From: a bacterium
Lineage (GTDB): Bacteria; SZUA-182; DTGQ01; JAFGSM01
Reading direction: 5' to 3'
NCBI GenBank assembly: GCA_049472335.1
Contig: JBLIRO010000021.1
Location: forward strand, 1,766 to 65,765
DNA: 64,000 bases
The notes below the pieces were generated by a model. The model was given only the letters and a program-made list of their open reading frames with translations. It did not search any database and was not told the DNA's origin. Position numbers and translations under genes: made by a program. Shown here piece after piece: positions 5,951-45,922 of this stretch (the stretch's first letter is position 1; each line of letters starts with the position of its first letter).

Positions 5951-6188
5951 AAAAATTAACTCTTACTCCAATATTTACGCTCAAAATAGATACATAAGGT
6001 CAATTTTTACGCATTGTAACTTAAAGAACCATTATTGTCAAATCGAATCCCTCAAAATCAATAATTGACCTTTTCCAAAATACATATACAAAGATATTTT
6101 ATCAGAGTCGCTCCTAAAGGTTTGCACAACAATTCCATGAATACTTGAATTTCAACTAATAATCATCATATAATATGGGCCATCCTGT

Positions 6189-6265: not shown

Positions 6266-6423
6266 TATCAACTTATTAATATCCTACAATAATGCTCTTC
6301 TGAAACATGCTTTAAAATGATGCCCCAATAGTGTTCATGGAAGGATATAAAAAAAGGGATTAAAGTGAAATATTCATTATGCATTTTTTTATAAGTGACG
6401 ATTTATAATTGTTTTAAAAACGC

Positions 6424-6886
6424 TTACGCTGCTGTGGAATAGAGAAACAGGATCTGAGGTCGTAGATCTCTAATCACTCTTTTAAAATCGGGCAGGTCAG
6501 GGACAAGAGGGCCAAGCCACTGTTTCCAGGTCCTTTCGACATAATCGATCATTTTTAGCTCAAAAAAATCATCAGGGCTTTTGAATGTGAGACATTTCGG
6601 ACTTTGCATTTGTCTATCAGAAAGGAAAAAAATCCGAAAGTTCCAGGTGATTTTGATAGGTACTGAAAATACGTCAGAAATCGTAGTAATCGCATGCTCT
6701 GGAGCGACTCCAACCTCGTTCCTGAAGTTTATCAATATTTTGTAATATTGCGCAAAATTTTTCCGCAATAATCTCCTCTAATGCATATACCCGGACTTCT
6801 GTTTCAAACAGTTCACCATATTCATGAATGATTGCTCGTTTCTTGAAAGACTTGAGCACTTTTCCATCTACTGCTATTTTGATCAT
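6424..6886 (-). pseudogene. nucleotidyltransferase AbiEii/AbiGii-type toxin, 5'-truncated and frameshifted
   Basis: Two overlapping minus-strand ORFs in different frames (6674-6886 and 6424-6768). Together they resemble the C-terminal half of AbiEii toxins (ALEEIIAEKFCAILQ....ACDYYD). The catalytic N-terminal part is absent. Confidence 0.55.
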
Positions 6887-7029
6887 AAAAGGTAGGAATC
6901 CCTGATTCCTGCTTTATGAGCGAGCTTTAGAGCCTGAATTATAGGAAATATACGATTTCCTTCGGCTGTGATTAGTCTTATAAGCTCTACACCAACATGG
7001 GTCTTTTTCAGTTTTTTAACTGTATTCAT
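6883..7029 (-). pseudogene. 48-codon ORF, possible truncated AbiEi-like antitoxin remnant
   Basis: Hand translation gives MNTVKKLKKTHVGVELIRLITAEGNRIFPIIQALKLAHKAGIRDSYLL. Its stop overlaps the ATG of the toxin fragment (ATGA), a typical TA coupling. Similarity to AbiEi N-termini is only weak. Confidence 0.25.
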
Positions 7030-7509
7030 TTGATATTGTCCAATCTTTGCCAATTATAAACTATTATAATTAGATAATTTATGTCAAACATTGGACAGTG
7101 TCAAATATTCGCCGAACAAAAACAAATAAAGGGGATTGCATTTTTTTATGCCTTAAGATTCAGAATAAATATAAGTTAAGCCGAATTTTCTAAAAGCCTA
7201 TTTTTATCAGGAAAGATATCCTATATTTTATTTAAACCCAAAAATATTTGAATAGCTGTCGTATGGATTATGAAGAGTCTAGGTAATCCTTTGGGATGCC
7301 TAAGAAATATTTAAAAGTATATTTTTTTTCTAATGATTCAGTTTGAATGTTTTACTAAAATTTATGCTATTTTATCTGATAATTTATAATAGCTCCTCTG
7401 AAGTCACACTACAGCATACCCCCCTTCTCAAGTGGATAAACCCTCCATTTAATATTAAGTTAATCAATTGGAATTAAATGATAATTTATATTTTGGCACA
7501 AAGTTTTTA

Positions 7510-7539
7510 TTGACATAAGAACTACTAAGCCAATATAAT
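7510..7539 (+). promoter_or_regulatory. sigma70-type promoter candidate (TTGACA-18 nt-TATAAT)
   Basis: TTGACA at 7510-7515 and TATAAT at 7534-7539, about 90 nt upstream of the ATG at 7630. Confidence 0.35.
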
Positions 7540-7629
7540 ATTATTACATCTTTGATTATAACCTTTTGGAAATTTTCAGTTCTTTACAATCCCACCATTA
7601 AATAATCCATAAAAAAGGGGGAATTTATT

Positions 7630-7853
7630 ATGACAAGGTCTAAATTCTATCTAATACTCTTTTTTTTCTAACAATAATACTCTCAGCACCCTATTATGTC
7701 ACTAATGATATAGCAGAAGAGATTTATGTACATCTTGGAGAAAGTATTCAGACAGCTATCACCACTTCTAATAATGGAGATGAAATTATTGTAGAACCTG
7801 GAACATATTTAGAAAATATTAATTTTTCAGGTAAAGCTATTACAGTCAGGAGT
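7630..7853 (+). other. 5' portion of the 7854-8588 gene (signal peptide + beta-helix N-cap), separated by a frameshift in a T8 tract
   Basis: The ATG at 7630 gives MTRSKFYLILFFF and then TAA at 7669. The frame continuous with the 7854 ORF is open from 7656 and reads TLFFLTIILSAPYYVTNDIAEEIYVHLGESIQTAITTSNNGDEIIVEPGTYLENINFSGKAITVRS. One extra T in the T8 run (7660-7667) would join the two frames. Confidence 0.6.
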
Positions 7854-8588
7854 ATGGATCCGAACGACTTTCTTTCCAGCACTTTTGGCGTATATGTCAA
7901 TGGGACAATGGTCGATGGCGACATTCAGGATGGAACTGCTGTGCCGGGCAGTCTCGATTTCAATCTGACAGGGGATTTTCTGAAATTTACACCGGATGAA
8001 GGAGCTATCTCAAGCGGGGATATGGTGTATATCAGGCTCACTGACAGAATTAGAGATATCTGTGCCAATCCCTTGCAAACACCTCCCATGGGTGTAAAAT
8101 TATTTCATTTTGAGAGCAGTAAAAATTTACAAATAAAAGCCGGATGGAGTATGATCTCGCTTCCCGTTATACCGGAAAGCACTCTAGTCTCGGATCTCTT
8201 TCCCGGAGCCGTAGTAGTCTATGGTTATAAAAAAGGAATAGGATATGACCGTATAAAAAATGAAGAGAATATGGAAGCAGGAAAGGGATATTGGATATTG
8301 CTAACTGAAGAAACAAACTATCCCTTAATCGGTCAATGTATTCTGAATTATAATCTTACAGTATATGAAGACGGATGGGAGATGATCGGCGGTTGCTCAT
8401 ATCCGGCCCAGGCATCGGCAGACAGTTGTGATACAGGTGTTATCTATAGATATGTTCAGGGATATGGGTATCAAAAGGTTCAGGAATCAGAGGCCCTTGA
8501 ACCTGGTCAAGGCTACTGGATACAGCTCAAAGATGTTAAGAATCAATGCACACTAATGGTTGAGCCTTCAAGTCCCATTCTCTATTAA
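7854..8588 (+). CDS. secreted protein, C-terminal part (Ig-like segment + duplicated GW...GxGYW module); probably begins at 7630
   Basis: ORF-track entry of 244 aa. The upstream in-frame extension has no start codon (see the 7630-7853 feature). No catalytic motif recognised. Confidence 0.6.
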   Translation: MDPNDFLSSTFGVYVNGTMVDGDIQDGTAVPGSLDFNLTGDFLKFTPDEGAISSGDMVYIRLTDRIRDICANPLQTPPMGVKLFHFESSKNLQIKAGWSMISLPVIPESTLVSDLFPGAVVVYGYKKGIGYDRIKNEENMEAGKGYWILLTEETNYPLIGQCILNYNLTVYEDGWEMIGGCSYPAQASADSCDTGVIYRYVQGYGYQKVQESEALEPGQGYWIQLKDVKNQCTLMVEPSSPILY

Positions 8589-9000
8589 CGATAATTGACA
8601 ATCTTAAATCATATTGAGGCATAGTCTGAATTGGCTCTGCCTTTTTTGCATGTTTGTCTAAGGCTGCTTCTAACTCAACTTTGACTGTCACAGTTGAGTT
8701 AAAAATTTTTCCAGGTATATAATCGAGAACTAATCTTTTAATTTCATGAGACGCAATATGTTTGTTAATTATATAATCCTTTTATGCCTTGTAAAAATGA
8801 TGAGTTGACAAAATTTAGTTACAACAACGAAATTTTGGTTAAGCTGATATGTGGCATTTAAAATAAAAAATTGTTAAAGTTACATCAAGTAACAGGTGAT
8901 CCATTTTCTTCAATATTAAAAAAAACAAATTGCTGAAAAAGTCGAGGCACAGTTTAAAAGGGCCTTTTATTCTGTACATTAGAAGAAGGGAGAGGGAAAA

Positions 9001-9306
9001 ATGAAAAATTTATTCTTTTTTATTCTGTTTTTATTCAAGCCTATCAGAGTATTCGCCCATGTTGATAATTGGCATATGGACAGATGGGGGCATATGAGCG
9101 GTTACGGATTCGGAGGTATAATTATATGGATAATTCTTTTGATATTAGTTGCCCTGGTTATTTATTTTATTACACAGAATATAAAATTAAGATCATCCGG
9201 ACATTCATCAGGAGAAACTCCTTTGGATATTTTGAAAACACGATATGCAAAGGGTGAGATTTCAAAGGAAGAGTTTAACCAAATGAAAAAGGATTTAGAA
9301 GCATAG
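9001..9306 (+). CDS. small membrane protein with C-terminal SHOCT domain
   Basis: 101 aa. One TM helix (GGIIIWIILLILVALVIYFI). The C-terminal LDILKTRYAKGEISKEEFNQMKKDL matches the SHOCT motif. Confidence 0.7.
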   Translation: MKNLFFFILFLFKPIRVFAHVDNWHMDRWGHMSGYGFGGIIIWIILLILVALVIYFITQNIKLRSSGHSSGETPLDILKTRYAKGEISKEEFNQMKKDLEA

Positions 9307-9328
9307 ATCATTTGATGTTTTTTATAAG

Positions 9329-9769
9329 ATGAAGGTTAGAAGTAAAAAGGTGAAAGATATCAATATCCTGTATAGATCTCCAAGCATAGAAGAATATATA
9401 TCCCTTCGAAAAGCTGTGGGTTGGAATATACCCGATGAACAGGTAATAAAGATATCACTTAAAAATGCCCTGTTCTCTGTATGTCTTGAAAAGGGAAATA
9501 AAATCATTGGTTGCGGAAGAGTAATTGGTGATGAAGGATTATATTTATATATCCAGGATATTATAGTACTACCTGCATACCAGGGGCATGGATATGGGAA
9601 AAAAGTAATGGATGAAATAATGAATTATATTAATCATAAAGCAGGTAAAGGCGCCTTTATAGGCCTGTTTTCCGCAAAAGGGCTCGAAGGATTTTATAAA
9701 AAATATGGATTCAAAGAAAGGCCTGATGAAAACTCCGGGGCAGGGATGTTTCTTTTTAAACTTAACTGA
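9329..9769 (+). CDS. GNAT family N-acetyltransferase
   Basis: 146 aa. Acetyl-CoA-binding motif VLPAYQGHGYGKKVM. Confidence 0.8.
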   Translation: MKVRSKKVKDINILYRSPSIEEYISLRKAVGWNIPDEQVIKISLKNALFSVCLEKGNKIIGCGRVIGDEGLYLYIQDIIVLPAYQGHGYGKKVMDEIMNYINHKAGKGAFIGLFSAKGLEGFYKKYGFKERPDENSGAGMFLFKLN

Positions 9770-11627
9770 GGGAATAAGAAAATTTTCCTTTTATGCAAGA
9801 TGTCTGATCTTTACAATTACCTTAACGGTATTTTGGATTAATCATAATCTAGCATTGGCACAGGAAGAAGATATTCCCTATTACGAATTAGATTCCTTGG
9901 TTATAACTGCCAGCGGTATTCCCGCATACCTTTCAGAGATTGCGCAATCCGTAACTGTAATCACCCGGGAAGAAATCGATACCCTCCCTGCAAAAAGTAT
10001 CCCGGACCTTTTGGAATATGTCAGCAGTGTGGACATACGCCAGCGCGGGATGAGCGGCATTCAGGCAGACCTGGGAATACGCGGAAGCACCTTTGAGCAA
10101 ACATTGGTCTTAGTGGACGGCATAAATATGAGCGATCCCCAGACCGGGCACCACAATATGGATTTGCCGGTTAACCTGGAAGATGTCGAGCGAATCGAGA
10201 TTGTAAAAGGACCCGGGGCAAGGCTATACAGCCATAATGCCATGGCAGGGGTCATTAATATTATTACACGTGAGACAGAGGATAATACCGCAGGCGGACG
10301 TATAAAGTACGGGCAGTATGATTATTACGGTATTGGTGCTTATGGTGCAATAAAAACCGGTGATTTATCCAACCGTCTTTCACTCTCAAGGGCTTCATCA
10401 GAGGGACACCTGGAGGGAAAAACCGATTTCGATATCAACACGTTATTTTACAGGGGACTAATCAGAGGTGAGAGACAAAAATTTCGAATTGGTATTGGAT
10501 ACACAGATAAAGACTTTGGGGCCTATAAATTTTATAGCGATGTTTACCCAGATGAGCGGGAATCAACAGATACATTATTAGCTTATTGCAGCGCCCATTT
10601 ACAGGTTTCAGGTTTAGAGATTATGCCAAAACTCTTTTGGCGGCAACATAATGACGACTTCAGAATCCAGATAAAGGACAATTGGCTCAGGAACACTCAC
10701 AGGAAAGACACCCTTGGGACAGAATTTAATTCCCAGTTTACGTCCGGATTGGGGACAACAGCCGTTGGATTCGAGATCGTTCACGAGGCGGTGGAAAGCT
10801 CTAACCTGGGTGATCACGACCGTGAGAGGAACGGCGTCTTTTTGGAACATTCATGCAAGCCTTTTAAACGGTTGACCATTGGCCTGGGTTCATCGGCAAT
10901 GAAATACAGCGGCCGGGATTGGGAATACTGGCCGAATGCCGGACTAAATATGCTGCTAACGGACAGATTGAATTGGTTTGTATCTTTAGCGAGATCTTTT
11001 CGCGTTCCCACATATACCGAATTATATTATAAAGATCCGGCAAATCAGGGCAACCCCGATCTGAGGCCGGAGAAATCTTGGACCTATGAAACCGGGATTC
11101 GCTGGCGCAGGGAAGCATTCTACACTGATTTCAGCTTATTTTTGCGTAATTCAAAGGATTTGATTGACTGGTCCCGCGTAGGCCCTCCTGACCCCTGGAA
11201 GGCCCGTAACATTTCAAAAATCATTACCCAGGGATTCGAAGTGAGTACATGCTTTGATCCGGGTATATATTGGGATAACACATTCGTTAAGACCTTAGAA
11301 ATTTCTTACACATACTTAGACTCAGACATGGATACGTATGGGCTTGAGTCAAAATACGTCCTGGATTGCCTGAAAAACCAGATCCATGGTTCCGTCATCC
11401 TGGACTGGTCCGGAAATATTAATCAAACGGTTAAGGCACGTTATGAAAGACGAATGACCGGGGACGGGCATTTCATTGTTGATTCACAGTTAACCTATGG
11501 GTGGTCGGGATACGAATTTTTTCTGGAGGCCACAAATATATTCGACGAAAATTATATTGATTCAGGTTTTTCACCCGCTCCAGGATTCTGGATGATAGGA
11601 GGCATAAAGTTTAATAAGGACTTTTAA
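9705..11627 (+). CDS. TonB-dependent outer-membrane receptor
   Basis: 640 aa. Plug domain (DSLVITASG, VTVITREEI, GIRGS, VLVDGI, IEIVKGPG), a long beta-barrel and a terminal aromatic residue (KFNKDF). The annotated start overlaps the GNAT gene by 65 nt, so the true start is probably a later Met (e.g. 9726). Confidence 0.85.
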   Translation: MDSKKGLMKTPGQGCFFLNLTEGIRKFSFYARCLIFTITLTVFWINHNLALAQEEDIPYYELDSLVITASGIPAYLSEIAQSVTVITREEIDTLPAKSIPDLLEYVSSVDIRQRGMSGIQADLGIRGSTFEQTLVLVDGINMSDPQTGHHNMDLPVNLEDVERIEIVKGPGARLYSHNAMAGVINIITRETEDNTAGGRIKYGQYDYYGIGAYGAIKTGDLSNRLSLSRASSEGHLEGKTDFDINTLFYRGLIRGERQKFRIGIGYTDKDFGAYKFYSDVYPDERESTDTLLAYCSAHLQVSGLEIMPKLFWRQHNDDFRIQIKDNWLRNTHRKDTLGTEFNSQFTSGLGTTAVGFEIVHEAVESSNLGDHDRERNGVFLEHSCKPFKRLTIGLGSSAMKYSGRDWEYWPNAGLNMLLTDRLNWFVSLARSFRVPTYTELYYKDPANQGNPDLRPEKSWTYETGIRWRREAFYTDFSLFLRNSKDLIDWSRVGPPDPWKARNISKIITQGFEVSTCFDPGIYWDNTFVKTLEISYTYLDSDMDTYGLESKYVLDCLKNQIHGSVILDWSGNINQTVKARYERRMTGDGHFIVDSQLTYGWSGYEFFLEATNIFDENYIDSGFSPAPGFWMIGGIKFNKDF

Positions 11628-12012
11628 AAATTAATCAATAAGTTTCGCATAATTATCCACGATCCTTCACCGTCAATGGAAGATAAAAACCGTTAATATT
11701 CAGCCATCTGGAATTCTATTCAGAGCCGTAATCATTAATAAATATTTTCGCCTATTTTATAGATTATTTAAGTTAAACGGAAATTAATTTATTTATTAAC
11801 CCGGATGTATGATTTGGGTTAAAGGCTGATTTTATTTTTTTCTTCGGTTTCTTTTATCTTTGTTCTTTTCATTCTATTTTCGAGAAACTGCTCTTAGAAA
11901 GGATTGGCCAAAACAGGGCAGTGGAGATTTGTGAGTGGAAAAAGGGTTCAAAACAGACATTCTCTTTAATATCCACTAATGAAACAATAGGTAAATACTT
12001 TCATCCCATTTC

Positions 12013-12723
12013 ATGGTTTGGTTCTTTAAAAAGGAGCAAAATATGTCTTTTACCAATGAACATGAATCAGAAAATGATGAAAGCAGTATTCTAGTTGTCG
12101 ATTTCCAGCCGATTGTTCGTCTGGGTCTTATTCAACTTATCAACAATAGCAGAGGTCTTAAGGTCTGCGGTGAAGCAGAAAATGCTCATGAAGCCCTGGA
12201 ACTTATTAAAGTACTGAAACCTGACATGGCTATTGTTGACATTTCTATTAAAGGTGTCGGCGGTATCGAACTTATCGAAACGATAAAGCTGCAGTATCCC
12301 AATTTTCCCATACTGGTCTTTTCCATGCTGGATGAATCTTTTTATGCGGAACGGGTCCTTAAAGCGGGCGCCATTGGTTATCTCATGAAGCATGAGGCAT
12401 TAAAAAACATAATAAACGCAATCCGCTGTGTTCTGCTTAAAGAGATCTTCGTGAGTGAAAAGATATCAGCAAATATCATGTATAGGGCCTTATATAACAA
12501 ATCCAATGGTTATTCTTTTCCTATGCAGCTTCTCAGCAACCGTGAACTGGAGGTCTTTCGTTTAATCGGCCAGGGCTATAAGACCAGACGAATAGCAGAG
12601 AAGCTGAACATAAGCACAAGAACAGTTGAAGCTTATCGTATGCATATCAAAGATAAATTGAATCTAAATTCAGGGGAGGATTTACTCCGTCAAGCCATTA
12701 AATGGATAAAAAACGAGAGATGA
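12013..12723 (+). CDS. NarL/LuxR-family response regulator (REC + LuxR-type HTH)
   Basis: 236 aa. REC domain (VVDFQP, phospho-acceptor MAIVDISIKG, SMLDE, GYLMK). C-terminal LSNRELEVFRLIGQGYKTRRIAEKLNISTRTVEAYRMHI. No histidine kinase nearby. Confidence 0.85.
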   Translation: MVWFFKKEQNMSFTNEHESENDESSILVVDFQPIVRLGLIQLINNSRGLKVCGEAENAHEALELIKVLKPDMAIVDISIKGVGGIELIETIKLQYPNFPILVFSMLDESFYAERVLKAGAIGYLMKHEALKNIINAIRCVLLKEIFVSEKISANIMYRALYNKSNGYSFPMQLLSNRELEVFRLIGQGYKTRRIAEKLNISTRTVEAYRMHIKDKLNLNSGEDLLRQAIKWIKNER

Positions 12724-12911
12724 TTTCAGTATTCTTTTATTCATTTTTTTACTCATAAAGAAGATATTCTTTATTATTCAGCCTGCATAACCGGCCTTCA
12801 GTCATAACGCCCCCTATTTATCTTCCTTGTTCCGGATTTATAATGATCGCTTGGGTTTATTCATTAGGAATCTAAAAAAAACATATTTCAGAAATAAATC
12901 TACATAAAAAG

Positions 12912-12946
12912 CGGAAGGTAAAAACTAGATTTTTTACGTCTATTAA
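12912..12946 (+). promoter_or_regulatory. conserved upstream element, copy 1 (CGGAAGGTAAAAACTAGATTTTTTACGTCTATTAA)
   Basis: Near-identical to 14274-14309. It lies 165 nt upstream of the ATG at 13111. GAAGG-N17/18-CGTCTA resembles ECF-sigma -35/-10 geometry. Confidence 0.35.
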
Positions 12947-13056
12947 ATAAGAAGGGCGGATCAGACACCATGGATAATAAAAACATAAGTGGGGGAGTAA
13001 AATCTAATAAGAAAAGTATCCTTTAAATTTTGAAGGATTTAGTCTAAAAAATCAAT

Positions 13057-13096
13057 ATGGGGCAGGAAGATTACAGATGGGGCAGGAAGATCATAG
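13057..13096 (+). repeat. 20-bp tandem duplication (ATGGGGCAGGAAGATTACAG / ATGGGGCAGGAAGATCATAG) abutting the RBS of 13111
   Basis: Read directly; 18/20 identical. Confidence 0.85.
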
Positions 13097-13110
13097 AAAG
13101 GAGGTGAATT

Positions 13111-13908
13111 ATGAAACGTTTTAAAAAAAGGTATTTTTGGGGATTATTTGGTGCTATAGTTTTAATAGGGTTCTTATTCATTGTAAATTTTTGCTTTGTA
13201 CAAGAATTGACTATTATTCCTAAAGCAAATGCACAAGCATTTCAATATAATTGGGGCGGCGTTGGTACCGGAGGATCTCATGAATTAGCCGGTTATTTCC
13301 CAAGTGATTTAAAGGAAACCATAACTACTTGTAGCGGAGGATGTACAGAAACCGCCTCCACCTGTGCGTGGGACTGTGGCGCCACTTTCTCTCAATGCGG
13401 ATCAGGAAGCGGACAAAGATCCGGAGCCGGGCTATTGGGCGGAAGCTATACTTTCGGCATTTGTTCCACTTCCACAACTTGTGGCAACAGCTTATTTGGC
13501 AGTTGTATGAGCGGAAGCTATACTTTCGGAGTTTGCCTAAGGACTGAGATTCCCACATCGAATACCTGCAGCAGCGGCATCTTCTGTGGCGGAGGCGGCA
13601 ATATCACATTACTGACCTGCGGAAGCAGTCCATATAGCAGTTGTGGCATTGGTAGCTATACATACAGCACCTGCAATGTCGGTTGTGGTTATATAATCCC
13701 TACAACCAAGACCTGCAATTGTAGAAAGGAACCAAAATGGCAATGGGGTTCGGAATATACTAACAGTATTTGTCCTATAGCTACTGGTACAACTTGTGAT
13801 GGATATTGCGCATTACCGATTCCGGGAGTTATTTTATATGATTACACCGGAATTAACGATTATACCAACATGTCCAATTATACAGTTTCTACCCCACCCG
13901 CATTTTAA
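13111..13908 (+). CDS. secreted Cys/Gly/Ser/Thr-rich repeat protein (GSYTFGxC repeats), function unknown
   Basis: 265 aa. Strong RBS AAGGAGG. Signal/anchor peptide ending ANA-QAFQYNW. 20 Cys in the mature part. Repeated GSYTFGIC / GSYTFGVC / GSYTYSTC units with near-identical DNA at about 13441 and 13513. Confidence 0.7.
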   Translation: MKRFKKRYFWGLFGAIVLIGFLFIVNFCFVQELTIIPKANAQAFQYNWGGVGTGGSHELAGYFPSDLKETITTCSGGCTETASTCAWDCGATFSQCGSGSGQRSGAGLLGGSYTFGICSTSTTCGNSLFGSCMSGSYTFGVCLRTEIPTSNTCSSGIFCGGGGNITLLTCGSSPYSSCGIGSYTYSTCNVGCGYIIPTTKTCNCRKEPKWQWGSEYTNSICPIATGTTCDGYCALPIPGVILYDYTGINDYTNMSNYTVSTPPAF

Positions 13909-13967
13909 TATAGATGATAATAGCAATCACTAAAATCTTCTCAAAAATACCGGAATAATATTTCTGG

Positions 13968-14007
13968 GGGCCTTTGAAAGCTAATAGGCTTTTAAGGCCC
14001 TTTTATT
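13968..14007 (+). terminator. rho-independent terminator candidate
   Basis: GGGCCTT (13968-13974) pairs with AAGGCCC (13994-14000) and is followed by TTTTATT. The loop is long (19 nt). Confidence 0.45.
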
Positions 14008-14273
14008 ATTCCTAATCTTGATATATGAAGATATTCCTACCCGAGACTCTTTTTATTCTTTCAATAGAAGGGATATAGTAAAAATCACTATGCGGAATAT
14101 AGTAGTTTCCATTATTGTCAAGTGTAATTTTAAGAGTTATTATTATAACAAATAACATTTTTGTATTTTTTTATTCGATATCGGGATGCCAGAAACATTT
14201 GCAGCAACTTCTCAATATCCTGGTGGGATCTTGAGAAGCTTAATCACAACAAGGTAAGATTTTTATAAACGTA

Positions 14274-14382: not shown

Positions 14383-15996
14383 ATGTTAAAACTTATACCA
14401 AATAAGCTTTTATGTTCTAAATGGGCCCATCTGTCTATTATTATATCTTTAATATTTTTATTGACATCTTCATTTACTTCGGCTGTTGATAATCAAATCC
14501 AATATCCAACAATAAATCTTCCTGGATTGTTTAAACCATCGGGCTTTCCATATCAACCGCCCTTTTTTTCTTATACAAATTATACCTTCGATCCCATACG
14601 ATCCTCATTAAATTCTTCTTTTAAATTGGAAAGCAATTATTCCATACCCTTTTCACAGTTCGGCATTAGTAATTATTCTTTTCAGTTTCTACCAAACCGG
14701 ACTTCTGGTAGTATTTCCTCCTCTCTTTTTGAGAGTCTCACTTTCTCATATAAAAATCCCCTTAATTTATTTAACTACCAGCCTTCGTTTACACAATTTC
14801 CAAATAACACAAATTTCAATATACCTTATGTAGGATCATTAATGCCCAATATGGGATATATGCCACATGTTTTTCCCAGTGATAAATTTATATATAGTTA
14901 TTATCCTGGAGATATTTATGGTCAAAAGACACCTGCCCATCTGACGACGAGCCTTCCGCAAAAGCCTGGTGAAATCATCGGTACCATAGGAATAATAACT
15001 GATATACATTATTCCGACAAAGATTCCACTGACAGGCGTTCTCAATTTTCATTAAGTGGTCCCCGTTTTTACAGTGAAGCCGCTAACGACCTGGCCGATT
15101 TTGTCGACAAGATGAATTCTATGGGAGTTGATGCAATAATTGAGCTGGGCGATTTCATAGATATCCATTCAGGAAATTCCGCAGAAGAAGGCAACACCAA
15201 CACGCATGACGACGGGGCCCACGGAGAGGCAATATTATTCGAGGCAGAATCTATTTACTCAAAACTTGTCATGCCGTATTATCACGTTATTGGCAACTGG
15301 GATATGTATGATTATGATTTTGCCACTGCTGATGAATGGTTCCGCCACATTATCAATGGCACTCCCGAAACCATCGTAAGCCTTGGGGGAAAACTTTATA
15401 CCGATGCAATTGGTAATCCTGTAAGCAGGTATTACGCATTTAAATTTGGTGAAGTTCTGGGTATAGCGTTGGATTCTTCCGGCACTAATGCCTTAAGAGA
15501 CAACTATTTGATGCATACCACAGGGATAAACGGAACGGGTTTTGTCCCCGGGAAGCAGCTTGACTGGCTTGAAGATGTGCTGGCGGACAATAGAGATGGC
15601 GAAAACATGCCCGTTATAGTATTTATTCATCCTTTTTTATATCCGGAATTCATGGGGAATAATTATTATATGTGCAGAAATTACCTGGATGTTCGAGATA
15701 TTCTTGAAGCCGATGATAATGTGCTGGCTGTATTTAACGGTCATCATCATCCCGGTGCGGATGGTTGGTGGGAGGATACTCAAGATAATCCCGATTCTAA
15801 TGTTTATCATGCAGCCACCGGTGTATTTGGCGAAAAACACAAGGGTATCAAATACTATAATCTGAGAGGATCAATTATCGGATGGGGTTCCGATTCCTCA
15901 GGCCCAATTGAAGAGCCTTCAAATGTTTATTATGTTTTGACAGTGGAGAGAGGAGAGTCGATTTCCATTAAGGTTGAGACTTTTAGTACCAATTAA
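14383..15996 (+). CDS. secreted calcineurin-like metallophosphoesterase with N-terminal aromatic/Pro/Asn-rich low-complexity region
   Basis: 537 aa. Signal peptide. Low-complexity region at about residues 35-175. Phosphoesterase motifs DIHYSD, GDFID, GNWD, FIHP and GHHH. Confidence 0.8.
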   Translation: MLKLIPNKLLCSKWAHLSIIISLIFLLTSSFTSAVDNQIQYPTINLPGLFKPSGFPYQPPFFSYTNYTFDPIRSSLNSSFKLESNYSIPFSQFGISNYSFQFLPNRTSGSISSSLFESLTFSYKNPLNLFNYQPSFTQFPNNTNFNIPYVGSLMPNMGYMPHVFPSDKFIYSYYPGDIYGQKTPAHLTTSLPQKPGEIIGTIGIITDIHYSDKDSTDRRSQFSLSGPRFYSEAANDLADFVDKMNSMGVDAIIELGDFIDIHSGNSAEEGNTNTHDDGAHGEAILFEAESIYSKLVMPYYHVIGNWDMYDYDFATADEWFRHIINGTPETIVSLGGKLYTDAIGNPVSRYYAFKFGEVLGIALDSSGTNALRDNYLMHTTGINGTGFVPGKQLDWLEDVLADNRDGENMPVIVFIHPFLYPEFMGNNYYMCRNYLDVRDILEADDNVLAVFNGHHHPGADGWWEDTQDNPDSNVYHAATGVFGEKHKGIKYYNLRGSIIGWGSDSSGPIEEPSNVYYVLTVERGESISIKVETFSTN

Positions 15997-37012: not shown

Positions 37013-37166
37013 TGGATTTCTCTTCTTACATAAGTCAATGACATGATCCTTGAGAACATATAAGAATTTTTTTTTGTATCTTTAATATGTTCTGTTATAA
37101 ATCAAATTTTGTCAAATGTAAACCCAGAGAACTATCATCCGGCAATTCTTGTGCAATAATCTGTAG

Positions 37167-37192: not shown

Positions 37193-37319
37193 TAAAAAGT
37201 GCATTTTGTTTGGAATCTTTAACCTTCAAATTGAATATCAAGAAAATTAAAATTTTTTAATTTTAATTTAATCTTCTTTTAATTATTCTTATGGTAAAAT
37301 AAAAATAAGGAGGTGAACT

Positions 37320-37931
37320 ATGATATCAAATAAGAAATTGAGAAATGTTTTATTGATTCTTATTATATCCCTGGCCCTTGGGCTTATCTTTTCACCAATG
37401 GCCTTATGTCAATATTGGACGGCATTACCGCCATATAATTTCCTCTGGCCATTATGGTCACCAGCCTTGTCTCCGGTTAATCCTGTTACCGGGCTACCAA
37501 CTCCCATAGTCAGCGACCTTTATCCGAGCACCGTACTTCCCGCCCAGCCGGGTTTGGTATGGAATCCGGTTTTGAGTTATCCATATTTTCTTTACAATTC
37601 ACCTGTAGGGATGCAGTATTATGATGTCATTTACGGAATAAATACCTGGCCGCCCAGTTATGTATGGAATCCTGTAACAGGTGCACCCGTTCCAGTCGGT
37701 TTACCGGCGGGGTATGGTTTTCTGCCTGCTACAGACCCTCTCTGGATACAGCAAAATCTGCCGGTTGCAAATCTGGCCTATCTGGCAGAATACCCAAATT
37801 TGGCCCTGGCCGCTTACAATATAGTCCTTCCTCCAAATCTGACAGGTTTAAATCCATGGCTGGCTTCTCTAATATATCCGACACCAGCCTTTTCCTCACT
37901 TCTCACAGTGGCTGATATTTTAGGATACTGA
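37320..37931 (+). CDS. small secreted Pro/Trp/Tyr-rich protein, 'WPLWSP' family paralog 1
   Basis: 203 aa. RBS AAGGAGGTG. Signal peptide ending ALC-QYW. 48 of the first 73 mature residues are identical to the 45407 product in an ungapped hand alignment. Confidence 0.7.
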   Translation: MISNKKLRNVLLILIISLALGLIFSPMALCQYWTALPPYNFLWPLWSPALSPVNPVTGLPTPIVSDLYPSTVLPAQPGLVWNPVLSYPYFLYNSPVGMQYYDVIYGINTWPPSYVWNPVTGAPVPVGLPAGYGFLPATDPLWIQQNLPVANLAYLAEYPNLALAAYNIVLPPNLTGLNPWLASLIYPTPAFSSLLTVADILGY

Positions 37932-38245: not shown

Positions 38246-40372
38246 ATGAAACAAAAAGTGAAATGCAATGTAATTGAAACAACTATTATTATCATGATCA
38301 CATGTATACTCTTATGTTTGTCCCGTCCAATCAAGGCCCAATATAGCCCTTTCTCTTATCTTTCACCTGCCCTGGGGAATCCGGGCCTGTTTCAAAGCCC
38401 TTCATTTTTGACCGGTTTCCCTATTACAGGTTATGCGCCCGGTTTTTCCGGGGCAAACATGGGCTCTTATTACGGATACAATCCCTACAATCCATACGGC
38501 AATTTATATGGAGCACCCGGTTCCTATTATCCATATTATCCTTCTTATACCTCCTTCCCCGCGCCCCCTCCCCTCCCTGTAGGTAATATAGAGACCGTCA
38601 GGGCCATGGAGGCAAAGGGGATATACATCTATTATATATTTGAGGAGGCATATTCCGATGGCGTAACGATACCAAGTCCCGAAATAACACTACAGATTGC
38701 CGATGTCAGCGATCCTGACGACCCGGATATAATCAAAAGCATCTCACTTGATTATCCCGTATCCGATATCTTTCTCCACGGGGACTATCTGTACTGGATT
38801 TCAGACACTGGCCTGGAAGAACTTGGTTATAATCTGAATGATGATGAATACATATTGGGGGTTTTTGACATATCTGATCCAGATTCCCCCACAGAGATGG
38901 ACACCCTGAAGCTGACATTTTCCTCTCAGGGCGCTCCCGTATTCTCCTTTAATGAGAACCGTCTTTATATCCTGTATCAAGAGCAGGAAGAGGACTGGGA
39001 TGATGAAATCCATAATCTGATTACCATCGATATCTCCGATCCGGGAGATCTTACAAAGCTATCTACCGGGGAGATAGAATTGGACGGCTCAATAATACAC
39101 GACATGACTGTCAGGGACAACCTTGCAATCCTCTCTAAGGGCTATATCATGGATATATCCGATCCAAAACATCCATACCTTGTCTCCGAAGTGGAAGATA
39201 ACGGAAGTCACCTCGGACGTCATGCGGTATACGGGAACTATCTGCTCCTCACCGCAGAGGAAGAAGGTTTGTGGATAGTCGATATCGAAGACCCATCCCA
39301 GCCCGAGTTTATAACGAAAATAGAGTTGGCATGGCCCAAGGATATTATTATCAAGGATCAGCTTGCATATATATCCGATTACTGCAAGGGGCTCAATGTG
39401 GTGGACCTTACTGATCCGGAAGATCCCGAACTGATCCACGGATACAGGCTCCCTTCACACAAGATGTACCGCAGCACATCTAACAGCACTGAAGGCTGGC
39501 TAAACGATATGGATATGGGAGAAGGGCTTGCCCTTACCTTATCCTATTCAAATATACAGATATGGGATATATCAGAGAAAGACGATGTTCAGATGGTTGA
39601 GAGGATCGGCTCCTCTCATGAACAAGAGGATCTTACAAAATCGATAATCCCTGGGAAACTGGTTTTGCTTCTTTCACATGATGCAATAGATTTGCTGTCC
39701 ATCGGCCAGGACGGAGGTATTGCCACTTTCGGTATTGATTCACTTGATGAATTAAACGAGAAATACAATATATCCAAAATCACAAAAGAAACATCATCAT
39801 GGGAAATCCCTGCAATAATGTCTGACTATGATAATTATTCAAAAAGGACCTTTTCCATAGAATTCCCAGGATCCGTAAATATGTATGATATTTGGGATGA
39901 CTATATGGACAATCCTTATTGTCTTATTGCAGAGTTTCTCTATACACCCGATCCTTATTCGAATGGAATTGTTGTAGGTTATGGGGGCGGCTATTATGGC
40001 TTACCCTTTCCGGGAGGATACGGCCTGGGAGGGATCTATGGCCCAGGGGGGTATGGCATGGGATTTGGGGCTTTCAATCCCTATGGTTATACAGGTATCC
40101 CATATCAAGGCACCAATCTTCTGCTAGGCCCCTTTGGTTTATCCGGAACAGGATATTCACCATACGGCCTGACTAATCCTTTTCAGTATGGCACAGGTAT
40201 GCCCGGCATTATTAGTTCAATCCCCTGGAATCCTATATCATCATTATTTCCGGGTGGGAACTGGCAATTTCCCAACCAGTCATATTGGCCCGGTTCCCTA
40301 TTTTCAGGCACTAATATTTATAATCCAATATACCCGGGAGGAAATTATTCCATGTACTATCCGTTTATATAA
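38246..40372 (+). CDS. secreted LVIVD-repeat beta-propeller protein flanked by N- and C-terminal Tyr/Gly/Pro-rich low-complexity regions
   Basis: 708 aa. Signal peptide ending IKA-QYSPF. LVIVD-type repeats (ILGVFDISDPDSP, LITIDISDPGD, GYIMDISDPKHP, LWIVDIEDPSQP, LNVVDLTDPEDP). The C-terminal ~135 aa are GY/PY-rich. Confidence 0.8.
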   Translation: MKQKVKCNVIETTIIIMITCILLCLSRPIKAQYSPFSYLSPALGNPGLFQSPSFLTGFPITGYAPGFSGANMGSYYGYNPYNPYGNLYGAPGSYYPYYPSYTSFPAPPPLPVGNIETVRAMEAKGIYIYYIFEEAYSDGVTIPSPEITLQIADVSDPDDPDIIKSISLDYPVSDIFLHGDYLYWISDTGLEELGYNLNDDEYILGVFDISDPDSPTEMDTLKLTFSSQGAPVFSFNENRLYILYQEQEEDWDDEIHNLITIDISDPGDLTKLSTGEIELDGSIIHDMTVRDNLAILSKGYIMDISDPKHPYLVSEVEDNGSHLGRHAVYGNYLLLTAEEEGLWIVDIEDPSQPEFITKIELAWPKDIIIKDQLAYISDYCKGLNVVDLTDPEDPELIHGYRLPSHKMYRSTSNSTEGWLNDMDMGEGLALTLSYSNIQIWDISEKDDVQMVERIGSSHEQEDLTKSIIPGKLVLLLSHDAIDLLSIGQDGGIATFGIDSLDELNEKYNISKITKETSSWEIPAIMSDYDNYSKRTFSIEFPGSVNMYDIWDDYMDNPYCLIAEFLYTPDPYSNGIVVGYGGGYYGLPFPGGYGLGGIYGPGGYGMGFGAFNPYGYTGIPYQGTNLLLGPFGLSGTGYSPYGLTNPFQYGTGMPGIISSIPWNPISSLFPGGNWQFPNQSYWPGSLFSGTNIYNPIYPGGNYSMYYPFI

Positions 40373-40604: not shown

Positions 40605-42689
40605 ATGATACAATCATGGATCTTCTATCTACAAAGGAGCATGAGAATCCGCAACAGGGATTTCCATGTGAATAACAATAGATTAATAGCTTTTTTTATT
40701 ATCATCAACATAACGATATTAATCAATCCTATAAATGTTAATGCTCAATGGATGCCATTTACCGGGTTAAATTTTCCAGGAGCACTTACCCAATGGCCAT
40801 CTTACACCGGGTCTTTATTCAGCCCTGACTATTCTTTATTCAATTTCAATCCCGCATACGGGAATTCTTTTTACTCGCCATTTTATCCATTGTCCGGATC
40901 GTTTTCAGGAGGAATATATGGAGGGTTATATGGAGGATCATATGGGGGATTGTATGGGAGGAATTATAATCTCCTTTCTCCGGGTTTAATTCCCTCTTTT
41001 TTGTACACCAATCCTTATATAAGCCCTTCTTCTTCCAGTCCAACAAACTGGACGGCAAACGTGTTGCCCGGCAACAATAATTGGTGGCAGGGACCACCTT
41101 TATATTTCCCCCAGAATTCGTTATTTAATCCTATTTTACCGAGTATTATACCGGTTTCTCAGCCGAACACTTACTGTGATCCGGCTTCTGCACCAGGCAG
41201 GATGAAAGGGAACTGGAGCAGCAAGATGATGAAAGACGAAGATGGCAATGCATTATCAGGGGAACTGAGCGTTAGAAGCGGAGGTGACAGCGATACTATC
41301 AATATGCTGGATTCTTACCTTATACTGGGCGAAGGCTCCCTTAATGAATTTAAATATACCCGCACCAACGGCAAGGCACCCATATCATTTCAAGGGACCT
41401 TCTATTCAGGATATACAGCGAATTTTACCGGCACTGCCAACAATAAACTTTGCTGCCGGAATACCTACTGTGCTTTTGCCGGTGTTTTTGAGGTGGAAGG
41501 TAATTATGTGATCAAAGACAAACTTGGAGAAATCGCAGATAAAGGCACCTTTAAACTCAAAGGGCCTGTTAGCAGCTCCTCTACAAGTCATACACCGGTT
41601 GACGCCATCAAGGCACTGGGGAAGCCCGTTGAAGAAGGGAGAGAGATCCTTTCCCTGACTACCGGAGCAGACGGCCGCATCTATGGAGGAACGGATATCG
41701 GGTGTCTAAATGTAGGGCACATGTTCATCTATGATCCTGCCACAGAAGAGACCATCGATCTGGGCAACCCGGGTTATGAATGCAATGCCATGACCACAGG
41801 AAAGGATGGCTTGATCTATCTTGGCGGAGGCACAAGGTCTTCGGGTGACCATGATTGTAAGTCAATAGGTTATGCCAACTTTGCCATCTATGACCCGGAC
41901 AGGCCCTGGAATCCCGGCCAGGGATCAAATGCCAATCCCCGGGACCTGGGACAGGCCGTGAATTTCAGCGGAGAAGTTGAGGGCTATCCCATAGTGGTAC
42001 ACGATCTGGCCACTGCCCCCAATGGAAAGATATATGGCTGTACAGGTTACAGAGACGGACAATCGGGGGAATACTATGCCAACCTCTTTGTATATGATCC
42101 TCAAACGGATACCATAGAGAATCTGGGTCAGCCAATCTCGAACCAGAGCAGTATCACCAGGCTGGCAATAGCCCCGGACGGCATTATATATGGAGTAATT
42201 CTCGGCCCTCGCACTGGATACAGGCCCCCTCCGGGTAAGCTCTTTTCCTATGATCCGGCATCCGCATCCTTCACCATGATCAATACACCATCATCTATCG
42301 AGGGAGCCGGTGACCTTACCGTAGGAGCGGACGGTCTGTTATATCTGGCAGGGAATGAAAACAATACCACTATATTTACCTATGATCAGGTCTCAAAATC
42401 CTTTGATATTAAAGGCGGTCTTGGCGGAGGCGGCAGCGTCCTGAGGATGATCACTGCCGTGGATGGGATCATTTATATCGGTTGCGCGGTAAATGGTTAT
42501 TTTGTTCATTATGATCCTGAAAAGGCTTGGGATGACAAGCCATATAGTGATGCTAATGACAAACCAGGAGTAAATCCCAGGGTCTTTCATTGGACGGAAA
42601 AGGTAAATGCCTTGACTGAAGGTTTGGACGGGACTATCTATTTTGGCAATTTAAGCGGGCAGCTATTTTATTTCGAAGGAGAAGAATAA
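40605..42689 (+). CDS. secreted protein: N-terminal low-complexity region + middle domain + 7-bladed beta-propeller (DGxIYxG repeats)
   Basis: 694 aa. Signal peptide ending VNA-QWMPF. Low-complexity region to about residue 190. Seven repeats: ADGRIYGGT, KDGLIYLGG, PNGKIYGCT, PDGIIYGVI, ADGLLYLAG, VDGIIYIGC, LDGTIYFGN. Confidence 0.75.
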   Translation: MIQSWIFYLQRSMRIRNRDFHVNNNRLIAFFIIINITILINPINVNAQWMPFTGLNFPGALTQWPSYTGSLFSPDYSLFNFNPAYGNSFYSPFYPLSGSFSGGIYGGLYGGSYGGLYGRNYNLLSPGLIPSFLYTNPYISPSSSSPTNWTANVLPGNNNWWQGPPLYFPQNSLFNPILPSIIPVSQPNTYCDPASAPGRMKGNWSSKMMKDEDGNALSGELSVRSGGDSDTINMLDSYLILGEGSLNEFKYTRTNGKAPISFQGTFYSGYTANFTGTANNKLCCRNTYCAFAGVFEVEGNYVIKDKLGEIADKGTFKLKGPVSSSSTSHTPVDAIKALGKPVEEGREILSLTTGADGRIYGGTDIGCLNVGHMFIYDPATEETIDLGNPGYECNAMTTGKDGLIYLGGGTRSSGDHDCKSIGYANFAIYDPDRPWNPGQGSNANPRDLGQAVNFSGEVEGYPIVVHDLATAPNGKIYGCTGYRDGQSGEYYANLFVYDPQTDTIENLGQPISNQSSITRLAIAPDGIIYGVILGPRTGYRPPPGKLFSYDPASASFTMINTPSSIEGAGDLTVGADGLLYLAGNENNTTIFTYDQVSKSFDIKGGLGGGGSVLRMITAVDGIIYIGCAVNGYFVHYDPEKAWDDKPYSDANDKPGVNPRVFHWTEKVNALTEGLDGTIYFGNLSGQLFYFEGEE

Positions 42690-43475: not shown

Positions 43476-45260
43476 ATGCCGGGTAAAAATACTTATAAAA
43501 CGTCTTTTGCTTTTATGTTTTGTTTTTTTGCTTTTTCTCTCTTTTTTCTTATACCTACACTTCAATGCCAATGGTATTCATATCCACCACCTATGAACAA
43601 TCTAAATTTTAACGGGTTTCCAGGGAATTCTCCATGGGCTTTTAGTAACTATCCTCCGGCTTATGGCTCCTCCCCTGTCTTACGAAATTTCTCTCCCATC
43701 CCTGGTTATTCCGGATTTTCTATAAATTCCGATCCTTACGGAAATCCATGGATGCCGTATTTTCCTCCGACTTCAGGATCAAAAAATTTGGCCACAGCCA
43801 GGTTTTCCTTTGTCCATTTAGCTGTAGATGGGGACTATATCTATGCGCTATTCACAGAAGCAAGAGGCCGGAACAGGAGTGCACTTGTCATTTTTGAGGC
43901 TTCCGGCTCGGATGATTATGAATATCTCTCCCATATCACTCTTTATGAGCCTGGCTATTTAATAGATGCGAATCCAGCGCCCATGGAAATCATTATCAAA
44001 GATGATCTTGCTGTAATCGGCGGTGATGACCAGGGCATGATTTACCTGGTGGATATCTCCGAAAAGGATGACCCGGAGCTTATCAACAAGCTCATCCTGG
44101 GCAACAGGACGGCGGATGATAGTGCTGCTGACAGGGTGACCGGTCTGGCAATTGAAGATGATGTGCTTTTTGTGAGTGTCCCTTTTTTTGTGGAAAATGA
44201 CAGTAGAATCTACGCCGTGGATATTTCCAATCCGGAGGATACGGATGAGGATGATGACCTGCTTGATTCCTTCACCGTAGATGACTATGACGTCCACGGC
44301 ATGGTATCTTCTCAGGATTACCTCTATGTCGTCGGCAGAGACCGTGGTTACCCTGACGGAGAGAACGAAGGCGGGGCCACAATTCTCATTATGGATGTCT
44401 CAGACCCGGAGCATCTATCTTTGGAGGAAATCTTCGATGACCTGGATGATTCGTCGTTGGGAGAACCGGATGATTTAAGTGTAGAGATTGCAGGTGACTA
44501 TCTTTTTGTAACATGCGGTGATTTTGAAGGCTCCTCTTCAGAGTCTAAATTAAGGATAATTGACATAAGTGACCCCGAAGACCCGGATCTGATATCTTCT
44601 TCCAAAAAAATGACCGGCACGCAAATATTCGGAAACAGATACATATCCGTTAAGGATAATTATGCCTATGTATTAGCATCCGATACCAGCGACAAGGAAT
44701 CCGGAATCTATGTCTATGACATATCCGATCCGGAGGACCCTGATTTAGTTGAAACTAGAAATATTAGTGACGGCAGCGGATATGACCTCCATCTCGTCGA
44801 TGACAGGCTTTTTGTCCACATTATCAATCAAGGGATTATAAAACTGATTGACATATCGGATCCAAGGGATCTGTCAATAGAAGGGACCGTGGACCTTGCC
44901 GGGATACTGGAAGAGGCAGAGGAATTCGATGATTGGGGATACACCGGGTATGTAGTTCCTCCTTATCTTTATGGGGGTTATCCGCCATATGGATATTCTT
45001 ATACTCCACCTCCTCTTTATACACCATCCCTACCCATTGGTTATAACACACCATACGGAACATCCAGGGTCGGTTTGGGAAATGTCCCTAACTACTACGG
45101 ATATGCACAACCATTTTATGGCGGCAATCTCAACTACGCTTCAAGATTTGGCTTTAACTATGGGCAAATACCCTATGGTGGATATCCTAATTATGGCCCT
45201 GTGCCTGGGTATAGTTATGGTTTATCAGCACCTTATTTTGGCAGTTGGCGGCAATTCTGA
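43476..45260 (+). CDS. secreted LVIVD-repeat beta-propeller protein with N- and C-terminal low-complexity regions (paralog-like to 38246)
   Basis: 594 aa. Signal peptide ending LQC-QWYSY. Repeats MIYLVDISEKDDP, RIYAVDISNPED, ILIMDVSDPEH, LRIIDISDPEDP, IYVYDISDPEDP and IKLIDISDPRD. The C-terminal ~108 aa are PY/GY-rich. Confidence 0.8.
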   Translation: MPGKNTYKTSFAFMFCFFAFSLFFLIPTLQCQWYSYPPPMNNLNFNGFPGNSPWAFSNYPPAYGSSPVLRNFSPIPGYSGFSINSDPYGNPWMPYFPPTSGSKNLATARFSFVHLAVDGDYIYALFTEARGRNRSALVIFEASGSDDYEYLSHITLYEPGYLIDANPAPMEIIIKDDLAVIGGDDQGMIYLVDISEKDDPELINKLILGNRTADDSAADRVTGLAIEDDVLFVSVPFFVENDSRIYAVDISNPEDTDEDDDLLDSFTVDDYDVHGMVSSQDYLYVVGRDRGYPDGENEGGATILIMDVSDPEHLSLEEIFDDLDDSSLGEPDDLSVEIAGDYLFVTCGDFEGSSSESKLRIIDISDPEDPDLISSSKKMTGTQIFGNRYISVKDNYAYVLASDTSDKESGIYVYDISDPEDPDLVETRNISDGSGYDLHLVDDRLFVHIINQGIIKLIDISDPRDLSIEGTVDLAGILEEAEEFDDWGYTGYVVPPYLYGGYPPYGYSYTPPPLYTPSLPIGYNTPYGTSRVGLGNVPNYYGYAQPFYGGNLNYASRFGFNYGQIPYGGYPNYGPVPGYSYGLSAPYFGSWRQF

Positions 45261-45406
45261 ATACAACCGATCAGACAATTTTTATGACAAGCTTTAATGG
45301 AAAAAAACTTTATAAATAGGATTAAAGAATAAAAAAATATTGTAACATCTTAGTTGATTAAAAAGTAAATGTTTTTAATTTATCATTAAAAATAAAGGAG
45401 GGAATC

Positions 45407-45922
45407 ATGTCAAAAAAAAGAATAATCTTTATCTGTCTCATTATCTCCATTATCTCATTGATTTTGGCTCCCTCAGCTCAATCCCAAAATTGGGCAGCCA
45501 TACCTCCTTATAATATCTTGTGGCCATTGTGGTCACCCATCTTATCACCTGTTAATACAACTACACAGCTCCCAACACCGATTGTTTCAAACTTGAATCG
45601 TTTTACCCTGCTTCCATACCAACCAGCTATCGCTTGGGATCCATATATGCCTTATCCCTGGTTTCTTTACAATAGTCCCTTTGGCTTAGTATATTATGAT
45701 GTATTACAGGATTTTATTTCTATGTGGCCTCCACTTCATCTAATCAATCCGTTTACGTTTGACCCCCTCCCCATTACACTTCCATCTAATTATTCTGCTT
45801 TTCCGCCGGTCTCTAGTGTTTTTCTTTCAGAATATGTCCCAATTGCAAACGAAGCATATACTGATCAATACTTCCCTAATGCATTCTTGTTAACTGCTAT
45901 TCAACTCGTTGCCCCATTTTAG
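45407..45922 (+). CDS. small secreted Pro/Trp/Tyr-rich protein, 'WPLWSP' family paralog 2
   Basis: 171 aa. RBS AAGGAGGG. Signal peptide ending AQS-QNW. The conserved core is IPPYNILWPLWSPILSPVN..LPTPIVS...FLYNSPFG.VYYDV. Confidence 0.7.
   Translation: MSKKRIIFICLIISIISLILAPSAQSQNWAAIPPYNILWPLWSPILSPVNTTTQLPTPIVSNLNRFTLLPYQPAIAWDPYMPYPWFLYNSPFGLVYYDVLQDFISMWPPLHLINPFTFDPLPITLPSNYSAFPPVSSVFLSEYVPIANEAYTDQYFPNAFLLTAIQLVAPF

Follow-up and report, generated by a model that had tools for sequence, protein, structure and literature searches.

The stretch of DNA analysed here (hereafter the window; 64,000 nucleotides, positions 1,766 to 65,765 of the forward strand of contig JBLIRO010000021.1 in assembly GCA_049472335.1) encodes two small exported proteins, members A and B, which are paralogs from a family rich in proline, tryptophan and tyrosine. 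This family, termed PPYN after the proline-containing motif in its N-terminal half, is undescribed and confined to one order of a tiny uncultured phylum. The two genes comprise the following features.

37307..37313, + strand: Shine-Dalgarno sequence AAGGAGG of member A, 6 nt ahead of the ATG, read from the sequence
37320..37931, + strand: open reading frame (ORF) of member A, 203-aa precursor, stop codon included; top match to the family profile
37320..37409, + strand: Sec-type signal peptide of member A, 30 aa (...SPMALC↓QYW, where the arrow marks the cleavage site); predicted cleavage leaves Gln first
37410..37928, + strand: mature PPYN domain of member A, 173 aa, predicted by AlphaFold2 to have an N-half of strands and irregular segments and a helical C-half
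45395..45401, + strand: Shine-Dalgarno sequence AAGGAGG of member B, read from the sequence
45407..45922, + strand: ORF of member B, 171-aa precursor, stop codon included
45407..45484, + strand: signal peptide of member B, 26 aa (...APSAQS↓QNW), from the sequence and the family alignment
45485..45919, + strand: mature PPYN domain of member B, 145 aa, aligning to profile positions 8-179 and included in alignment A2

The distance from AAGGAGG to ATG is 5-6 nt across members A and B, and a strong GGAGG-type ribosome-binding site comparable to that of A lies upstream of all 32 paralogs (32/32) in the window's genome, a 4.98-Mb metagenome-assembled genome (MAG) of 149 contigs that is 88% complete and contains no 16S rRNA gene. 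This genome gives 34 PPYN matches in tblastn, while ORF-level phmmer and hmmsearch identify 32 full-length members and two fragments. Several members are clustered as two to four tandem genes. The signal peptide of member A has a basic n-region and a hydrophobic h-region in its sequence, and its residues 4-29 form one helix in the AlphaFold2 model. The preliminary description had called the proteins secreted, which holds for the Sec export signal and not beyond it, since the organism is diderm (Omp85, LpxC).

The two 73-residue cores quoted in the preliminary description are the translations of 37410-37628 and 45485-45703, and the 48 identities over 73 ungapped positions reported there are reproduced exactly by translation. 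Composition-preserving shuffles of one 73-mer (n = 100,000) give 6.7 identities on average and 19 at most, and full-length A and B share 50% identity over 150 residues in composition-adjusted BLASTP (E = 3e-44); the similarity is thus position-specific and no artefact of composition. The statement that the C-terminal halves diverge needs qualifying, as the A/B alignment stops only a few residues short of the C-terminus and family-wide conservation covers all of the mature protein. The domain is therefore real, and its extent is the whole mature protein of ~170 residues rather than the first 73.

Conservation and predicted fold of the PPYN domain

The PPYN alignment is conserved over the entire mature protein, not over the first 73 residues alone. 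The pattern starts with the signal peptide and A-x-A↓Q-[YN]-W-x-x-[LIM]-PPYN-x-LWPLWSP-x-LSP ... TG-x-P-TP ... LP-x-QP ... W[DN]P, and continues with ... P[WY][LF]LYN ... Y[FY]D ... YG-x-N-x-WPP ... AN-x-x-Y ... LLT-x-A-x-IWG(L)P, where the last element is the C-terminal motif. Only W, P, Y, N and L occupy the invariant positions (80-106 aligned sequences), and none of His, Cys, Lys, Arg and Glu is conserved in these sequences. An enzyme is disfavoured, as the family is without any invariant His, Cys, Lys, Arg or Glu, and a non-catalytic, structural or binding domain fits the data best.

The 31 mature proteins tabulated from the window's genome contain 16.8% Pro, 15.9% Leu, 4.4% Trp and 6.2% Tyr, and are nearly devoid of charge (Lys + Arg + His 1.0% versus 13% genome-wide; Asp + Glu 4.6% versus 12%). 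Mature member A contains no Lys, Arg or His at all, and each of the 31 copies contains 0-1 Cys. The family is under strong purifying selection, with ratios of nonsynonymous to synonymous substitution rates (dN/dS) of 0.07-0.18 for the majority of pairs of paralogs and orthologs, in the N-half and C-half alike. Member B and its ortholog in the closest, same-genus MAG (locus L012) give 0.18, while member A and its ortholog there give 0.45 overall (N-half 0.38, C-half 0.04), the higher value being driven by the signal peptide and N-half. The tree contains old subfamilies common to several genera and even families, together with recent tandem expansions in some genomes; the clade of member A comprises 11 rows from at least six genomes, and that of member B is small, with two orthologs from two other genomes. 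Antigenic variation or an arms race was considered and rejected because of the low dN/dS in both halves and the age of these subfamilies. The duplicated arrays on contigs C102 and C129 have a dS of ~1 and are thus old duplicates, not assembly artefacts.

AlphaFold2 models the precursor with the family alignment at a mean predicted local distance difference test score (pLDDT) of 92.8 and a predicted template modelling score (pTM) of 0.82, and the mature part alone (alignment A2) at 94.8 and 0.88, respectively. These values bear out the earlier view that PPYN is a real domain despite its Pro/Trp/Tyr-rich composition. The model of mature A has six four-residue strands (residues 3-6, 11-14, 48-51, 59-62, 69-72 and 76-79), three helices in the C-half (residues 110-135, 142-155 and 167-171) and long non-regular Pro/Trp-rich stretches with pLDDT above 95.

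The preliminary description could assign the core to no known family, and every search made since agrees with it. Members A and B match no Pfam or NCBIfam family at E≤0.1, and a Pfam scan of 106 aligned members gives no recurrent family at E≤1. The best match in a profile search of PDB sequences has an E of 2.4. Foldseek finds nothing at E≤0.001 for both models against PDB (best E 2.4-4.7, template modelling (TM) score at most 0.20) or for the mature-domain model against BFVD (best E 0.46, TM at most 0.2), and a literature search on the PPYN motif or the MAG names gave nothing relevant. As judged from the model, PPYN is a strong candidate for a new fold with no relative in PDB or BFVD, which is not proof of one.

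Small exported proteins of this composition recall the surface-active coat proteins, i.e. the chaplins of Streptomyces (ChpA-H), rodlins, BslA and hydrophobins, which are likewise small, Sec-exported, very hydrophobic and present as multiple paralogs. PPYN proteins of this kind would assemble by themselves into an amphipathic film, render the surface of the cell or filament hydrophobic, and be surface building blocks as these proteins are. The near absence of charge, the many paralogs per genome and the coexistence of short, domain-only and long, fused PPYN versions are consistent with such a role. In chaplins, short and long versions also coexist. Nevertheless, such a coat protein seems unlikely, as PPYN has no sequence relationship or Pfam match to chaplins, rodlins or hydrophobins, and no match to the chaplin domain (PF03777) or curlin repeats (PF07012); its alignment contains no internal repeats. 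The 0-1 Cys per mature protein are incompatible with the hydrophobin pattern of eight conserved Cys in four disulfides, while the predicted ~170-residue, Pro/Trp-rich domain is globular, well packed and of mixed fold, unlike an amyloid-prone repeat or a ~50-residue amyloid unit. In addition, the diderm envelope of the host demands an extra export step.

Family distribution, domain fusions and low-complexity tags

PPYN is present in all genomes of the window's order (13/13, with 11-70 copies each) and in none of seven genomes (0/7) from other orders of the phylum, within a GTDB-based set of only 20 species genomes. The order's genomes that carry it are uncultured MAGs, some from Zodletone spring. 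A collection of 5.8 billion protein clusters yields 236 relatives, all of them unnamed or labelled 'hypothetical protein [bacterium]', and the profile recovers just 102 PPYN clusters from 1.84 billion representative proteins. The two decayed copies in the window's genome (C60:45291-45977 and C100:17428-17757), one split by a TAG into N- and C-terminal pieces and the other reduced to 109 aa by an internal deletion, indicate birth-and-death turnover of the family. In another genome (locus L087; MF1_202303_bin_233 scaffold_39, 5484-12499), ~ten PPYN genes lie in tandem over ~7 kb, and this array is partly gene-for-gene orthologous to those that the window's genome has on C129 and C102.

About one in ten members is long (11/102 representatives; 12/111 ORFs in the fetched loci). 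PPYN directly follows the signal peptide in 9/10 long representatives, with the other modules behind it, which in several of the proteins are domains without assignment. The members with recognisable arrangements, together with one gene array, are listed below.

P0146: PPYN followed by five LVIVD repeats and TSP3
P0134: PPYN followed by PKD and a right-handed beta-helix
P0169: PPYN followed by BACON, F5/8-C and FG-GAP
P0141: protein with an HExxHxxGxxH motif, in which PPYN lies near the C-terminus
Locus L091 (G012:C12:71000-89000), ORFs 2362-4089, 4610-6313, 7159-8721, 8863-11943, 12048-14012, 14574-15602 and 17059-end: seven tandem genes of genome G012, in each of which PPYN follows a signal peptide and is joined by a Pro/Thr/Val linker to 1-6 copies of a ~110-residue unassigned domain

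The ~110-residue repeat of the last array has the pattern AEQAGTW...GPMTLNL...LLGNP...NNQIY.SGSG...TFTID..., and a Pfam scan of one gene (12048-14012) gave no match.

A conserved terminal module on unrelated exported proteins resembles the SLH domains and the N-terminal lipopolysaccharide (LPS)-binding domain of Caulobacter RsaA, and PPYN would likewise attach its carriers to a common envelope component. It differs from these S-layer anchors in having neither an SLH match (PF00395; no Pfam match in PPYN members) nor a PDB fold match, and most of its members consist of the module alone. The mycobacterial PE/PPE proteins also take their name from a proline-containing N-terminal motif, have undergone massive expansion in one lineage, and consist of an N-terminal domain of ~110-180 residues that is conserved and C-terminal extensions that vary. 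PE/PPE proteins are helical, are without Sec signal peptides and are secreted by ESX systems; no sequence or fold match between them and PPYN was found.

The same fusions bear on whether PPYN may be a ligand-binding module of the carbohydrate-binding-module type, in which a conserved Trp/Tyr/Asn/Asp face would bind a polysaccharide from the environment or one made by the cell itself (O-antigen or exopolysaccharide). Free copies would then be lectin-like binders, while fused copies would target enzymes or adhesins to the polymer. The invariant residues, which are aromatic or Asn/Asp/Ser/Thr, the N-terminal modular position and the fusion partners (beta-helix, PKD, BACON, F5/8-C and FG-GAP, which are typical of glycan-active or adhesive surface proteins) all agree with this role. 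It is nonetheless rather doubtful, as PPYN matches no carbohydrate-binding module in Pfam and no such fold in PDB, ~90% of its members are domain-only, its extreme hydrophobicity and near-zero charge are atypical of soluble lectins, and no glycoside hydrolases or polysaccharide loci occur among its conserved neighbours.

Between members A and B, the window encodes three propeller proteins in which an aromatic/Pro/Gly/Asn low-complexity segment (tag) stands right after the signal peptide, where PPYN stands in the long members.

38246-40372: tagged LVIVD protein
40605-42689: tagged Kelch-like propeller protein
43476-45260: tagged LVIVD protein

PPYN and the tags thus share one architectural slot and the same kinds of passengers. 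By a crude count over crude gene calls, 184 of the ~4,194 genes (~4%) in the window's genome are tagged. The tags are uncharged Tyr/Phe/Trp-Pro-Gly-Asn-Ser segments, most of which immediately follow a signal peptide or form the C-terminal end, and among the proteins that carry them are metallophosphoesterases, 5'-nucleotidase-like enzymes, propellers and proteins made purely of (G/L/M)Y repeats.

Export, genomic context and regulation

The window's organism encodes four Omp85 matches, LpxC and five secretins, and is a diderm with LPS. The predicted cleavage site is A-x-A↓Q in most of the 32 paralogs, and 30/32 have no Cys near it and hence no lipobox (L-[AS]-[GA]-C). In member A (MALC↓Q), the Leu at -1 is atypical. 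The C-termini end in ...LLTxAxIWGLPxL or ...ILGY and contain no transmembrane segment or basic tail, unlike sortase or exosortase signals (LPXTG, PEP-CTERM and relatives), in which a C-terminal motif precedes a hydrophobic helix and a basic tail.

Gln is by far the commonest residue at +1 after crudely predicted signal-peptidase sites in this genome (166/1096, 15%, versus 3% overall), and a glutaminyl cyclase gene of family Glu_cyclase_2 is present (C84:33427-34116, E = 2.9e-100). In the ORF that contains it (C84:32707-34128), an aromatic low-complexity segment precedes the cyclase domain. The family thus combines the two features of substrates under the Q-rule, namely Gln at +1 and a glutaminyl cyclase in the genome; this rule, in which Gln follows the signal-peptidase-I site, was described as Bacteroidetes-specific (PMC5837995, PMC10653852). 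Because +1 Gln and the cyclase match the Q-rule, the N-terminal Gln of PPYN proteins is likely to be cyclised to pyroglutamate. The likeness lies in the signal-peptidase-I site, which exposes Gln in most members, and in the cyclase; the difference is that the PPYN host belongs to a separate tiny phylum, where the modification is predicted only.

The Bacteroidetes-like preference for Gln at +1 also raises the idea of an N-terminal sorting domain, which an outer-membrane translocon would recognise as the type IX system recognises the C-terminal domain of its cargo (TIGR04183 and related). PPYN resembles the latter in its tens of copies per genome (11-70, like type IX cargo counts) and its occurrence on diverse large surface-type proteins. 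Such a function is highly improbable, as PPYN is N-terminal, twice as long as the type IX domain and, in ~90% of members, without any cargo. Moreover, no NCBIfam or Pfam model of the type IX (Por/T9SS) C-terminal sorting domain matches PPYN, and its subfamilies are long conserved, with purifying selection along their full length.

One genomic association of PPYN is strong, namely that with a second exported aromatic family of ~160 aa, which contains a ...YTNPLYY... motif and the invariant C-terminus GSPDFYLSWVLLQ and has no Pfam match. Its gene lies immediately upstream, on the same strand, of every A-clade gene in other genomes (L013-L020 and L009-L011), and the PPYN paralog on contig C80 of the window's genome is likewise preceded by a second-family gene on the same strand. 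Its phyletic pattern is the same as that of PPYN (13/13 genomes of the order, 0/7 outside). Member A in the window has lost this partner and is adjoined by the LVIVD1 gene instead. Remote homology between the two families was considered and rejected, as hhalign aligns their signal peptides only. The identified genes of the second family are as follows.

Window's genome: C80:20904-21389
Window's genome: C44:3033-3425
Window's genome: C78:295-693
Window's genome: C103:12746-13144
Window's genome: C132:891-1313 and C132:4216-4608
Window's genome: C76:52383-53306
Window's genome: C108:1503-2427
Other genomes: L013:5339-5809, L016:3799-4284 and others

In the window, the cassette has the order small-LVIVD-propeller-LVIVD-small, with the two PPYN genes around the three tagged propeller genes. 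It is kept at L012 as B-like, A, LVIVD and Kelch-like, with the two PPYN genes side by side. Elsewhere, an LVIVD homolog occurs within 6 kb of only 1/79 PPYN loci of other genomes, and the other LVIVD genes of the window's genome do not adjoin PPYN genes. A general association with LVIVD is rejected, since the cassette is found in the same-genus MAG only. Another PPYN member is nearby at 15 of the 79 loci, and a low-complexity-tagged ORF at 22. In the window's genome, a tagged gene lies within 1.5 kb of 6/23 PPYN loci (2.7 expected, P ~0.05) and within 6 kb of 11/23 (6.4 expected, P ~0.03). Of the neighbourhoods proposed in the preliminary description, that with LVIVD genes is therefore genus-local, while that with tagged genes receives weak support. 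Homologs scattered without contextual association, which the preliminary description had named as grounds against its novelty claim, are partly seen for LVIVD and are offset by the fusions and the conserved partner gene.

The tagged neighbours suggest a further possibility, in which PPYN would be an adaptor that recognises the aromatic/Pro-rich tags of ~180 exported proteins in the manner of the WW, SH3, GYF or profilin domains that bind polyproline-II helices, and would give order to the tagged proteins, or act as their chaperone, in the periplasm or at the surface. The abundance of tagged genes, their modest enrichment beside PPYN genes, the cassette in the window and the aromatic partner gene adjoining A-clade genes are in favour of it. 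There is only a slim chance of this being correct, as the enrichment is weak, a tagged neighbour occurs at no more than 22/79 loci in other genomes, and the fusions set PPYN in the tag slot, which suggests an equivalent rather than a complementary role.

Besides the partner gene, clustering of conserved neighbours returned no more than members of two large and generic groups, signal-transduction proteins and TPR proteins. A PPYN subfamily of one family of genomes lies divergent from two regulatory genes, one for a dCache-PAS histidine kinase, the other for an NtrC-type sigma-54 activator (L049:1544-6010, L052, L055, L077 and L054), and -24/-12-type sites are seen in that divergent intergenic region, 340-550 nt upstream of the PPYN start. 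This arrangement suggests signal-controlled expression of the kinase-adjoining subfamily. TGGCAT-N5-ATGCT-type sites lie upstream of PPYN genes in other genomes at 18/104, versus 25/380 (P = 0.001), and at 1/32 in the window's genome, so that sigma-54 sites are no family-wide property. In the window, positions 37140-37156, ~165 nt ahead of the ATG at 37320, read cggcaattcttgtgcaa, with a GG-N10-GC spacing like that of a sigma-54 -24/-12 element; this reading is weak because of three mismatches to the consensus.

A possible role in the cell envelope

Of the roles considered, the likeliest for PPYN, though open to considerable doubt, is that of a lineage-specific module for assembly or anchoring in the cell envelope. 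It is suggested by four features: most members consist of the domain and nothing else; in the others, which are large surface-type proteins, it takes the N-terminal place of the low-complexity tag; it co-occurs, and is predicted to be partly co-transcribed, with the second aromatic family; and the whole set is restricted to one order.

Several observations weigh against this role. As the envelope is diderm, the Sec signal places PPYN proteins in the periplasm only, and the five secretins of the genome show no link to PPYN. Most PPYN copies are surrounded by housekeeping genes and have no conserved neighbours that serve the envelope or its assembly, and 7-mer enrichment upstream of the 32 paralogs recovers no shared promoter, only the Shine-Dalgarno sequence. 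Furthermore, a nearly invariant aromatic face is equally expected of a glycan- or peptide-binding module.

For a PPYN envelope module, we infer the pyroglutamate, a location beyond the inner membrane, an assembling or anchoring function, and which partner is bound. Signal peptidase I would cut the precursor to expose the N-terminal Gln, which an exported glutaminyl cyclase would probably convert to pyroglutamate. The mature part of ~170 residues would fold into one compact, nearly charge-free domain, where irregular Pro/Trp/Tyr-rich segments and short strands of the almost invariant N-half would pack on the helical C-half. The invariant N-half would be the assembly or attachment face for a common partner, which may be another copy, a protein of the second family, or an envelope glycan or lipid, while the more variable helical half would distinguish the long-lived subfamilies. 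Free-standing copies would make up a layer or matrix of protein in the envelope, to which PPYN would, in ~10% of members, tether large passengers such as LVIVD propellers, beta-helix/PKD, FG-GAP/BACON and repeat stalks.

By a bolder and rather improbable extension, the order may build a new envelope or extracellular matrix from charge-free Pro/aromatic-rich proteins, where PPYN and the second family would be the folded units and the ~180 tagged exported enzymes and propellers would dock via their tags or a fused PPYN. The pyroglutamate ends and the absence of Lys and Arg would then make for a protease-resistant layer.

The confident model and the odd composition make the PPYN domain a good target for experimental structure determination. 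If anchoring holds true, the domain would represent a new compact protein-display or self-assembly module. PPYN ties together the aromatic tags, a second co-distributed family and a Q-rule-like Gln preference outside Bacteroidota. It is one of the defining traits of its order, absent from the sister orders, and it probably reports on envelope construction in an uncultured and barely studied phylum.

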